Source: Escherichia coli
Lineage (GTDB): Bacteria; Pseudomonadota; Gammaproteobacteria; Enterobacterales; Enterobacteriaceae
Assembly: GCF_003790525.1 (NCBI RefSeq)
Contig: NZ_CP033635.1
Length of the DNA stretch: 64,000 nucleotides
Direction: 5' to 3' (one strand)
Made by a program: the position numbers and the translations under genes. The notes beneath the pieces were generated by a model. That model did no database searches. It was not told the DNA's origin and saw nothing but the letters and a program-made list of their open reading frames with translations. Below are positions 9,170 to 10,716 of this stretch, piece by piece. The stretch's first letter is position 1, and the number at the start of each line of letters is the position of its first letter.

Positions 9170-10716
9170 CAGCCTTCCTCCCCTTTAAATATAAATTCAC
9201 GTGCCAGTAATCCGGTGTTGGTGCTACTGCTTGCCCAAATAACCCCGGCATCGGTCAACATCTGACACTGTTTTTTCAGCGACGGTGTATCAAGGTCGGT
9301 TCCCAGCACATAGCCGAGGATCTCAAGCGGGCGACCGTCTGCGGCAGCAATTTCTTTGGCTTCAACAATTGTATCCAGCATCACTCCAACCGGATCTTCA
9401 TGTGATCCAAATCCAAGAATGAAGTCCATCACGATCACGCCAACTTCAGGATCCTGTGCTTCCTGCAAGAGCCGGGTAATGCGATTGGTGGGATCGATCA
9501 TCGGATGTGGTTTGCCGTTGGTAAAATAATCATCGCCGAAATCGAGGAAGGTATGCGCCACGCTACGGTTGAGATCTGTAAGGCGGAACGCCGGATTCGG
9601 GTGAATATTGCTATACACATCCGAGAGTTTTTCCATGGCAGTAAACATCGCTTCATCGCATAACGTGCCACCACAGAACAGGCCACGGATATACTTTTGT
9701 TGTGGAGTCAGACGGGAGCGAACCTCTTCAATCAGCTGCCAGTTGAGCGGATGCAAATCCAGACTCTCTTTTTTCACACCAGTCAACAGTACCGCTTTCA
9801 AGGCAGCCTCTTTAGTACCGCGGGCAAACTGTAGGCCTTCTTCATCCGCAGGGGTGGACTCACGTCCGAGGAAACACACCACCACAGGCTTGTGACAGGT
9901 GCGCGCACGTTCCAGCACCTTACGGGCTACCGCTGGTGCAGGAGGTTTGGATATAAGCGTAATGATCTCAGTTTGTGGATCGGCCTCCAGCATGCTAATC
10001 GCGTCAAGCATCATCAGGCCGCCAATTTTTTCACTCATATCGCGTCCACCTGTCCCAATCAGCTGGGAAATCCCGCCGCCAAATTCGTGAATGCGTACGC
10101 TCAGCTCCTGGCTACCCGTACCGGAGGCACCAATGATTCCGATGTTGCCGCGACGCACTGCATTGCCAAAACACAACGCTGCGCCGTTAATGATGGCGGT
10201 TCCACAATCAGGCCCCATCATCAACAACCCTTTTTCATGTGCCAGATGCTTGAGTTCCAGCTCGTCCTCAAGAGAGACGTTGTCAGAAAACAGCATAACA
10301 TTGAGGTTATTTTGTAGTGCCTGACGAGCTTCACGAGCAGCAAACAGGCCATTGACAGAGATCACCGCCAGATTACTCTCTGGAGCATGCTTCTTCGCAC
10401 TGGCAATCGTGGCATAGCGTGCTTCGTGCTGGCCTCCCTGTTCTTTATGCGCAAACAGCTCATCAATCGCTATTAGCGTCCGCTCGTTCGCCTCCTCGCT
10501 GGTACCTTTAATGACAATCATCAGATCGCCACTTTTCGCCTCTTCCAGCTCAGGGGTCAGCAGACCGAGATTCTTCAGCACCCCCTTATTCATCTCTGTC
10601 GCCATAGCAACAAATGCCTGCTCAACTCCATCAAGCTTATTTGCGCGCGTGGAGATAGACATCAGTGAAACAGAATCAAAATACGTGTTTTTTTTTACAA
10701 CTATCCTGATTGACAT
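9169..10716 (-). CDS. FdrA/YahF-like CoA-binding protein (succinyl-CoA synthetase alpha-like fold)
   Basis: 515 aa with glycine-rich CoA/NAD-binding motifs (GIIGASGTGSQE, MMGPDCGTAIINGA). Confidence 0.8.
   Translation of the reverse strand: MSIRIVVKKNTYFDSVSLMSISTRANKLDGVEQAFVAMATEMNKGVLKNLGLLTPELEEAKSGDLMIVIKGTSEEANERTLIAIDELFAHKEQGGQHEARYATIASAKKHAPESNLAVISVNGLFAAREARQALQNNLNVMLFSDNVSLEDELELKHLAHEKGLLMMGPDCGTAIINGAALCFGNAVRRGNIGIIGASGTGSQELSVRIHEFGGGISQLIGTGGRDMSEKIGGLMMLDAISMLEADPQTEIITLISKPPAPAVARKVLERARTCHKPVVVCFLGRESTPADEEGLQFARGTKEAALKAVLLTGVKKESLDLHPLNWQLIEEVRSRLTPQQKYIRGLFCGGTLCDEAMFTAMEKLSDVYSNIHPNPAFRLTDLNRSVAHTFLDFGDDYFTNGKPHPMIDPTNRITRLLQEAQDPEVGVIVMDFILGFGSHEDPVGVMLDTIVEAKEIAAADGRPLEILGYVLGTDLDTPSLKKQCQMLTDAGVIWASSSTNTGLLAREFIFKGEEG

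Follow-up and report, generated by a model that had tools for sequence, protein, structure and literature searches.

In a 64-kb stretch of Escherichia coli DNA (hereafter the window, meaning the whole stretch analysed), a yahE-like gene and the yahF-like gene downstream of it overlap out of frame by 41 nt, and the overlap contains a run of nine A residues in the mRNA. Our analysis indicates that this is an ordinary overlap junction of adjacent subunit genes, in which the long overlap and the A9 run come from one recent, lineage-specific and unprogrammed event. We estimate a probability of about 0.8 for this explanation, taken jointly with the assignment of the operon to the yahDEFG type, a paralogue of the allFGH oxamate carbamoyltransferase genes. 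According to this explanation, the yahF-like gene would be translated from a strong GGAGG ribosome-binding site and an ATG of its own, which are located inside the 3' end of the yahE-like gene, and YahE and YahF would be made as separate proteins. Two base changes that leave the YahF protein unaltered (Val7 GTT to GTA and Lys9 AAG to AAA) would have destroyed the yahE TAA stop codon of the nearest relatives, prolonging yahE translation by six codons (KKKHVF) to the next stop, and would at the same time have merged an A5 run into A9.

The overlapping gene pair and its operon

The yahE-like gene (10676-11524, minus strand) encodes a 282-aa DUF2877/AllH-family subunit ending in ...GGNYVNQDSCKKKHVF*, as identified from the ORF call, a Pfam match to PF11392 (AllH, E=1.2e-22) that spans residues 152-259, the RefSeq protein WP_000531854.1 and the alignment of homologues. 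The yahF-like gene (9169-10716, minus strand) encodes a 515-aa FdrA/AllF-family protein with a CoA-ligase fold, which begins with MSIRIVVKKNTYFDSV and was identified from the ORF call, Pfam PF00549 (6e-31) and PF02629 (3.4e-14), both pointing to an FdrA-like protein, and RefSeq WP_000027750.1. The RefSeq product names of this pair concur with the Pfam families. The third gene of the same operon is yahG-like (7751-9169, minus strand; DUF1116/AllG-family subunit; ORF call and PF06545, E=4.3e-90), and at this next junction downstream the yahF stop overlaps it by 1 nt. The operon order (ankyrin yahD-like, DUF2877, FdrA-like, DUF1116, carbamate kinase) is common to the K-12 yahE-yahF region and its orthologues. 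The locus of the window belongs to an E. coli accessory island, which is present in 141 of 5426 complete E. coli genomes and is mostly plasmid-borne; it is chromosomal in the genome of the window, whereas most other strains carry it on ColV-type plasmids. The YahE-like protein encoded here is only ~53% identical to K-12 YahE.

The yahF-like ORF starts at an ATG at 10716-10714 on the minus strand (MSIRIVVKKNTYFDS...), while the yahE-like ORF ends with a TGA at 10678-10676 on the same strand. The resulting 41-nt overlap (10676-10716) reads TCAAAATACGTGTTTTTTTTTACAACTATCCTGATTGACAT on the plus strand, and yahF lies in the +1 frame relative to yahE. The yahE stop TGA is made by the conserved yahF codons Phe13-Asp14 (TT[T GA]T) and is the third of three alternative stop positions. 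The yahF Shine-Dalgarno sequence GGAGGT (10721-10726, minus strand) is situated 5 nt 5' of the ATG, within yahE codons (Gly-Gly of GGNYV). The A9 run (T9 on the plus strand, 10688-10696) encodes Lys-Lys-Lys in the yahE frame and is read as gtA AAA AAA AAc (Val7-Lys8-Lys9-Asn10) in the yahF frame. RefSeq/PGAP annotates both CDSs with the identical 41-nt overlap in identical copies (WP_000531854.1 and WP_000027750.1). An earlier sequence-only reading had described a 41-nt out-of-frame overlap with a 9-nt homopolymer at the DUF2877/FdrA-like junction, and the position of the run, the ORFs and the PGAP CDSs all confirm this description. Although the run is the only A/T run of at least nine in the 64-kb window, it is statistically not remarkable when taken alone, because base composition alone predicts ~0.38 runs of this kind.

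The allFGH genes (fdrA-ylbE-ylbF) encode the three-subunit oxamate carbamoyltransferase of E. coli, whose activity needs all three proteins together (PMC11326118). By analogy with this paralogue, the Yah proteins may form a complex, and some translational coupling of yahE and yahF is probable. Coupling by re-initiation is probably weak, with initiation relying on the strong Shine-Dalgarno sequence, because terminating ribosomes would sit 38 nt beyond the downstream start.

Origin of the long overlap and the A9 run

To place the junction among its relatives, 78 related genome loci were fetched, 77 of which had a readable junction. The results showed that an overlap is present in 76 of these 77 loci and ranges from 1 to 41 nt (23 nt in 38 loci, 11 nt in 27, 4 nt in six, 41 nt in three, and 10 nt and 1 nt in one each). 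In the Enterobacterales loci, the stop codon of the upstream gene is found in any of three places, giving overlaps of 11, 23 or 41 nt, and all of them have the +1 frame relation and a GGAG(G/A)...ATG start of the downstream gene. The ATG and the N-terminus of yahF are conserved across the related loci, and the alignment of YahE C-termini revealed three tail classes (...GGNYVS*, ...QDSC* and ...QDSCKKKHVF*). The YahE tail is thus variable and falls outside the Pfam domain. With a DUF2877/AllH gene upstream, an FdrA/AllF gene downstream and a conserved Shine-Dalgarno sequence within the upstream CDS, the window pair fits the pattern of overlapping subunit genes of the yahEFG/allFGH type.

The A9 run has no counterpart in these loci: none of the 77 has an A/T run longer than six in the first 15 yahF codons, the longest being A6. 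A 41-nt overlap recurs independently in Trabulsiella guamensis, Serratia sp. H1w and S. silvae, each of which has only A6, indicating that the long overlap is independent of the A9 run. In Citrobacter portucalensis, which is the nearest relative (88% amino-acid identity), the sequence is ATAGTTGTTAAAAAGAAC, compared with ATAGTTGTAAAAAAAAAC in the window. In codons, GTT GTT AAA AAG AAC stands against GTT GTA AAA AAA AAC, and the run of the nearest relative is an A5 interrupted by a G. Judged against the Citrobacter loci, two bases are derived: 10696, where the ancestral T belonged to the yahE TAA stop, and 10690, where the ancestral base was G. Since 20% of synonymous third positions differ between the yahF genes of the window and C. 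portucalensis, two silent changes at the junction are unremarkable. As one of its options, the sequence-only reading had proposed that the DUF2877 stop is simply late. This option is supported by the comparison: the upstream genes of the relatives stop 11, 23 or 41 nt into yahF, and the 23-nt TAA has been lost in the window by the synonymous GTT to GTA change.

A selective origin of the same two changes was also considered, namely that selection promoted the silent changes to A, since yahF translation would initiate better when an A-rich, unstructured region directly follows the start codon, with the A9 run and the late stop as side effects. Such an origin is consistent with the A-rich codons that most loci use for yahF codons 8-10 (Lys-Lys-Asn), and the A-run is placed in a hairpin loop in the minimum-free-energy fold of the junction. 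However, the junction is if anything slightly more structured than shuffled sequences (z=-1.7; 15 of 200 shuffles fold as well), AAA AAG suffices in the relatives, and PMC4363877 describes iterated AAA codons as lowering protein output in E. coli. At 20% synonymous divergence, moreover, nothing separates selection from drift, and we consider this origin unlikely.

Effects and occurrence of run-length changes

A9 is the length at which slippage of E. coli RNA polymerase becomes detectable, and many genomes select against such runs (PMC1088944, PMC6260861). Functional transcriptional slippage has been described for the A9 of Thermus thermophilus dnaX, the A11 of Citrobacter rodentium tssM1 and A9/T9 runs in IS elements (PMC1088944, PMC4256274), and the A9 run of the yahE-yahF junction reaches the ~9 A/T in the sense strand that is typical of slippage sites. 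We computed the products of altered run lengths. A8 gives a 784-aa and A11 a 785-aa yahE-yahF fusion ORF, which bears out the earlier proposal that the two proteins would be fused or uncoupled if the length of the run were altered. YahF translated from its own ATG is lost with either A8 (17-aa peptide) or A10 (13-aa peptide), an on/off effect of the kind expected of a contingency locus, and an A10 transcript would give YahE an altered tail and leave no free YahF.

These products raise the question of whether slippage at the run is functional, in which case A9 would give rise to mixed mRNAs (A8 and A11 encoding the fusion, A10 no free YahF) that set the subunit stoichiometry or supply a fused subunit. 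The run of nine is at the known threshold, the fusion ORFs of 784 and 785 aa are open, the Enterobacterales offer precedents such as tssM (A11 with ~20% frameshifting), and a fusion is physically plausible since the two proteins are probably subunits of one enzyme. Nevertheless, the run is missing from all 77 readable related loci (longest A6) and is therefore not a conserved family feature, whereas conservation of the A-run among homologues would be expected at a programmed slippage site. A fusion also requires the deletion of one A or the insertion of two, but E. coli RNA polymerase mainly inserts single A's; deletions escaped detection on poly(A) of up to A8 and are very rare across the genome. 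The commonest slip, A10, would merely truncate YahF at 13 aa, and yahF has its own conserved Shine-Dalgarno sequence and ATG. In addition, a natural DUF2877-FdrA fusion was found neither in the best 150 of 1223 family representatives (all at most 351 aa) nor among the 120 listed homologues (all at most 321 aa). Functional slippage is thus quite improbable. At an ordinary, unprogrammed junction, some heterogeneity of the products is still likely because A9 is at the slippage-threshold length of RNA polymerase. Such low-level slippage is expected and probably incidental: the mainly inserted A's would truncate YahF from its own ATG, and would change just the apparently dispensable tail of YahE.

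Programmed ribosomal frameshifting was examined along the same lines. The heptamer A AAA AAA, which has the slippery X XXY YYZ form, is in register in both the yahE frame (aaA AAA AAA) and the yahF frame (gtA AAA AAA), and AAA-AAA is known to be slippery in E. coli (PMC1851650). A -1 shift adds 8 more codons and then a stop when it occurs from yahE, and gives a 13-aa peptide when it occurs from yahF (the same products as with A10). Neither is an extended or meaningful product, which comes close to refuting this mechanism. Passing from yahE into yahF needs a +1 shift, and the site has no hungry-codon or stop-codon context. A -1 signal would be expected to have a stimulatory structure 5-9 nt downstream, but no such structure was found 3' of the run (-21.9 kcal/mol for the 98 nt downstream versus a shuffle mean of -24.0, z=+0.59), a search of Rfam gave no match at E<=1, and the site is not conserved. 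The probability of this mechanism is therefore negligible. The sequence-only reading had raised the idea of a programmed frameshift, which is left without support: the run is unconserved, neither a stimulatory structure nor an RNA element accompanies it, and a fusion needs the rarely taken one-A deletion.

To see how the run varies within the species, we compared 147 E. coli records with an identity of at least 99%. The run was A9 in 145 of them, A8 in two and A10 in none; as all 145 A9 copies are at least 99% identical, their invariance samples little evolutionary time. A 91-nt probe matched 139 of the 147 records exactly and differed at one position in the remaining eight, two of which are the A8 records, and three others examined carry a synonymous G to A change at 10663. 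The A8 records are APEC IMT5155 p1ColV5155 and E. coli EC19 p1. IMT5155 is a 454-only assembly, and 454 pyrosequencing is error-prone at homopolymers. The two records come from distinct plasmid backgrounds (the LysR regulator contains an IS3 in IMT5155 but not in EC19) and differ in other SNPs, A8 is essentially the sole indel in the ~2.4-kb gene pair of each record, and both carry the intact 784-aa yahE-yahF fusion ORF. The DUF2877 gene split by PGAP had led us to suspect that the EC19 assembly is riddled with homopolymer errors; this suspicion was dropped, as A8 is the sole difference over the 2356-nt gene pair. Over 18 kb, EC19 differs from SA186 by two indels besides A8, one in a C-run and one in a hexamer repeat. 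A further candidate run-length variant, pAPEC-O2-ColV, was rejected because the 2 extra bases in its 601-nt probe region are two single-base insertions at separate sites within yahF, corresponding to 10587 and 10570 of the window, and lie outside the A-run.

These counts bear on a heritable switch, in which replication slippage would toggle between A9, with YahE and YahF as separate proteins, and A8 (fusion) or A10, both of which lack free YahF. A change in run length does have a clear ON/OFF effect on YahF, and A8 occurs in two of the 147 records, on different plasmid backgrounds with other SNP differences and essentially as the only indel of the gene pair. Contingency loci, however, typically show frequent repeat-length polymorphism among close strains, whereas 145 of the 147 records are A9 and none is A10, and one of the two A8 calls comes from a 454 pyrosequencing assembly. 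The genes encode cytoplasmic metabolic enzymes, while typical contingency loci have surface or restriction functions, and phase variation through A/T mononucleotide tracts is not known from mismatch-repair-proficient E. coli. The tract is also unconserved in relatives. We consider such a switch highly unlikely, and the suggestion of it in the sequence-only reading is not supported: A9 prevails in the records, where the two A8 include the 454-only assembly, and is absent from the related loci, 77 of 77 with a readable junction. A bolder version, in which both A8 alleles are real and selected and a new A9 in a recently spread island tunes carbamoyltransferase stoichiometry by diverting expression to the 784-785 aa YahE-YahF fusion or by shutting off free YahF, is very doubtful. 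For an ordinary junction with an incidental run, raised rates of DNA indels and sequencing errors would be expected to produce occasional A8 records annotated as frameshifted fdrA.

The biological weight of the finding is small; it shows how a single silent change in one gene can shift the overlapping stop of the gene upstream and produce a slippage-prone run. Its practical use lies in the quality control of annotations and assemblies, where miscalls or rare indels at A9 lead to the call of a "frameshifted fdrA" pseudogene, as in two of the 147 RefSeq records. Functional slippage, if the unlikely reading were true, would be a very young case of recoding that joins two enzyme subunits.

Comparison with known systems

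The slippage sites of Thermus dnaX (A9), C. rodentium tssM1 (A11) and IS elements (A9/T9) resemble the window in having a sense-strand run where another frame is open, so that a change in run length joins two ORFs. At those sites, however, either homologues preserve the run or the downstream ORF lacks a separate start, and the product of slippage is needed. In the window, by contrast, yahF has its own conserved Shine-Dalgarno sequence and ATG, only one recent lineage carries the run, and the slip that yields a product would be a deletion, whereas insertions are favoured.

The allFGH genes contain the same three families as the window (AllF/FdrA, AllG/DUF1116 and AllH/DUF2877) with a carbamate kinase gene nearby, but their order is F-G-H in the all operon and H-F-G in the window. 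The paper on AllFGH (PMC11326118) makes no mention of yahE, yahF, gene overlaps or homopolymers. Translationally coupled overlapping genes of operons (ATGA/TAATG type and longer overlaps) are likewise similar to the window pair, being on the same strand and out of frame, with the Shine-Dalgarno sequence inside the upstream CDS and products that are subunits of one enzyme, although the 41 nt of the window are longer than the common 1- and 4-nt overlaps. E. coli K-12 yahE-yahF (b0319/b0320) and the orthologues of Citrobacter, Klebsiella, Kluyvera, Serratia and Providencia share with the window the gene order, the GGAGG-N5-ATG inside the upstream gene, the +1 frame and the conserved yahF N-terminus (MS[IV][KR]IV[IV]K.NTYFDSV). 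They differ from its 41-nt overlap and A9 run in that K-12 has an 11-nt overlap, with YahE ending in ...GGNYVS* and ATT AAA CCG AAT in place of a long run, and Citrobacter has a 23-nt overlap and A5.

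Gene arrangement at the junction and in related loci

On the minus strand of the window, the yahE-like gene (10676-11524, 282 aa) is followed by the yahF-like gene (9169-10716, 515 aa), and the sequence spanning the junction reads ...CCGGAGGTAATTATGTCAATCAGGATAGTTGTAAAAAAAAACACGTATTTTGATTCT.... The upstream protein ends in ...GGNYVNQDSCKKKHVF with a TGA stop at 10678-10676, while the yahF reading frame (+1 relative to yahE) starts at an ATG at 10716 (N-terminus MSIRIVVKKNTYFDS), preceded by a strong Shine-Dalgarno sequence, GGAGGT at 10726-10721 (minus strand), inside the yahE coding sequence. 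The window sequence and the RefSeq CDSs both confirm the 41-nt out-of-frame overlap described in the sequence-only reading, which holds T9 at 10688-10696 on the plus strand, that is, A9 at 10696-10688 in the mRNA; in RefSeq, identical copies carry these two CDSs, overlapping in exactly this way. No other A/T run of at least nine bases occurs in the window (about 0.38 expected from composition). At eight bases, the window has just two further A/T runs, T8 (52142-52149) and A8 (59910-59917).

In Pfam, the yahE product belongs to AllH/DUF2877 and the yahF product to the CoA-ligase/CoA-binding (FdrA) fold, with AllG/DUF1116 after yahF and an ankyrin-repeat protein ahead of yahE. As judged by sequence comparison, yahE and yahF are shown to be two separate conserved genes, the second with a strong Shine-Dalgarno sequence and ATG within the first. 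The yahE-like ORF starts at 11524 with MGQVEQVF and lacks the approximately 16-30 N-terminal residues (M.ALTAD..F...RG.G) of many 287-299-aa homologues; a still later start (267 aa) is given in some database records of an identical protein.

We aligned 38 DUF2877-protein homologues and parsed the junction in 78 genomic loci, one from each of 78 species-level genomes; all but one were parsable. All Enterobacterales loci have a conserved FdrA-like ATG after GGAG(G/A), located in the +1 frame within the end of the DUF2877 gene. The DUF2877 stop takes three positions in this order, each made by yahF codons: codons 3-4 (..T AAA; 11-nt overlap, YahE ending in ...GGNYVS) in 27 loci including K-12; codons 7-8 (GT[T AA]A; 23-nt overlap, ...QDSC) in 38 loci, among them all close Citrobacter relatives; and codons 13-14 (TT[T GA]T, conserved Phe-Asp; 41-nt overlap, ...QDSCKKKHVF) in three loci, Trabulsiella guamensis, Serratia sp. 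H1w and S. silvae, as well as in the window. Among the other readable junctions, mostly from Firmicutes, six have a 4-nt overlap, one each has a 10-nt and a 1-nt overlap, and one has none. Because the stop takes three positions and the Pfam domain covers residues 152-259, the DUF2877 tail past GGNYV is variable in length and lies outside the domain, which supports the alternative given in the sequence-only reading, namely that the DUF2877 stop is just late. The junction is an ordinary feature, belonging to the common class of overlapping operon genes.

Origin of the nine-A run

The closest relative is Citrobacter portucalensis (88% and 92% amino acid identity for the DUF2877 and FdrA-like proteins, respectively), where the yahF frame reads ATA GTT GTT AAA AAG AAC instead of ATA GTT GTA AAA AAA AAC. 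Both differences are synonymous in yahF: T-to-A at 10696 (Val7) abolishes the TAA stop in the yahE frame, and G-to-A at 10690 (Lys9) merges the A's into a nine-base run. Since GTT AAA AAG is present in all eight of the closest Citrobacter loci, the window's GTA AAA AAA is the derived state. With one fifth of synonymous third positions different between this yahF and that of C. portucalensis, two silent changes at the junction are unremarkable. Within the first 15 yahF codons, A/T runs in the other parsed loci reach at most 6 bases, indicating that A9 is not characteristic of the family, and the longest run in the other three loci with 41-nt overlaps is A6, indicating that the long overlap is independent of the run. 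By this codon-level comparison, two yahF-silent substitutions are shown to account for both the late yahE stop and A9.

Distribution of the island and run length among strains

The window locus is, by sequence, distinct from the core K-12 yahEF pair (about 77% DNA identity at the junction and about 53% protein identity for YahE). The 601 bases around the junction were found at ≥99% identity in 141 of 5426 complete E. coli genomes, with 106 plasmid-borne and 45-47 chromosomal copies. Most of the plasmid carriers are IncF plasmids of the ColV type, about 190-210 kb in size, from poultry and human ExPEC; the sequence is also present on a few Klebsiella pneumoniae plasmids. The shared island corresponds to approximately 4.4-14.9 kb of the window, with IS elements at its borders, and the window matches the chromosomal context of strain TUM9803 over 25 kb.

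A 91-nt A9 probe, together with A8 and A10 versions, was scored against 147 records. The A9 probe matched 139 records exactly and differed at a single position in 8; the A10 probe had no exact match in the 147 records. The A8 probe was exact in two, the APEC IMT5155 plasmid p1ColV5155 and EC19 plasmid p1. Three other examined variants have a synonymous G-to-A at 10663. A8 is the sole difference across the 2356-nt gene pair in EC19 and the sole indel within 8.3 kb in IMT5155, and PGAP annotates both records with a frameshifted fdrA and an incomplete DUF2877 gene. As these plasmids differ elsewhere (an IS3 in the IMT5155 LysR regulator and several SNPs), they represent independent events or independent errors. 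The IMT5155 assembly was built from 454 pyrosequencing, which miscalls long homopolymers. Run length is essentially invariant (A9 in 145 of 147 records), with the caveat that the copies are all at least 99% identical and hence young; the suggested contingency switch failed this polymorphism test.

Several other features of the island and of the plasmids that carry it were observed. In IMT5155 p1ColV5155 (1905-4144), an IS3-family element interrupts the LysR-type regulator beside the island, and, given A8 in the same record, its yah-type operon may be decaying. pAPEC-O2-ColV, a 2006-era record with A9 intact, has two 1-base insertions in the yahF-like gene (window equivalents 10587 and 10570), a compensating pair 17 nt apart that is suggestive of early sequencing error; the PLSDB listing of this record contains no FdrA protein. 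A GTGTAT hexamer repeat (ATACAC on the other strand; about 12570-12590, plus strand) lies in the intergenic region between the divergently oriented LysR-type regulator and ankyrin/yahD-like genes, about 20 nt ahead of the regulator start at 12603; it has two copies in the window and plasmid pSA186_2 and three in EC19 plasmid p1, a change that could alter promoter spacing. A C6 run at about 14764-14769 (plus strand) is one base shorter (C5) in the SA186 and EC19 plasmid copies. Between the yahG-like gene, directly upstream, and the carbamate kinase gene lies a predicted 516-aa multi-pass membrane protein (6088-7638, minus strand), labelled 'hypothetical protein' in RefSeq and without a Pfam match; K-12 has no equivalent there, its yahG and carbamate kinase-like yahI being separated by the small yahH. 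ColV-type island plasmids also carry, about 15 kb away, a second, different AllH/FdrA/YlbE/carbamate-kinase cluster (EC19 plasmid p1, 2044-10222; also the start of related locus L001), with a cysteine hydrolase, an allophanate-hydrolase-related protein and a cytosine permease; there, the AllH and FdrA genes do not overlap but lie 94 nt apart.

Expected products of the junction and of slippage

With A9, YahE and YahF would be made as separate proteins. Initiation of yahF would rely chiefly on its own Shine-Dalgarno sequence, and ribosomes on the yahE end may help hold its start site open; because yahE terminates 38 nt past the yahF ATG, re-initiation coupling would be weak. The six-residue KKKHVF tail of YahE presumably has no role. 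Oxamate carbamoyltransferase activity depends on AllF, AllG and AllH being present together (PMC11326118), and by analogy the YahE- and YahF-like products and the DUF1116 protein probably form one enzyme.

Changes in run length would give different products from the yahE and yahF ATGs: 282 and 515 aa with A9; 287 aa (changed tail) and 13 aa with A10, as also by a -1 ribosomal shift; a 784-aa YahE-YahF fusion and 17 aa with A8; a 785-aa fusion and 18 aa with A11; and 283 and 516 aa with A12. The fusion is thus the sole extended alternative product, requiring a one-A deletion or a two-A insertion. Slippage by E. coli RNA polymerase is detectable from about 7 T or 8 A, with insertions predominating and poly(A) deletion undetectable up to A8 (PMC6260861); genome-wide, insertions climb exponentially with run length to the E. 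coli maximum of 9, and homopolymer deletions are very rare (PMC5574713). Selection against runs of 9 is seen in many genomes (PMC1088944). From this published behaviour, some A10 transcripts are expected, with lower YahF yield as their sole expected effect, and fusion transcripts should be rarer. A9 would bring low-level transcript heterogeneity and make the site especially prone to DNA indels and to sequencing errors.

Functional slippage yielding a YahE-YahF fusion subunit, or the two A8 records being real fusion alleles, would agree with the open 784-aa frame, but we regard either as very improbable. No natural DUF2877-FdrA fusion was found in 120 listed homologues or in the best 150 of 1223 family representatives. 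The 98 nt downstream show no unusual structure relative to shuffles (z=+0.59), the predicted fold of the 121-nt junction is just marginally more stable than those of its shuffles (z=-1.7), and the junction has no Rfam match. Programmed frameshifting as a form of recoding is not supported: the run is unconserved, and as a -1 ribosomal frameshift signal the junction fails on both structure and product. The likeness to the A9 of Thermus dnaX and the A11 of C. rodentium tssM is confined to a long A-run beside an open alternative frame; unlike these functional slippage sites, the window run fails on conservation, and its productive slip is in the disfavoured direction. The window junction is a variant of the annotated K-12 yahE-yahF junction (11-nt overlap).
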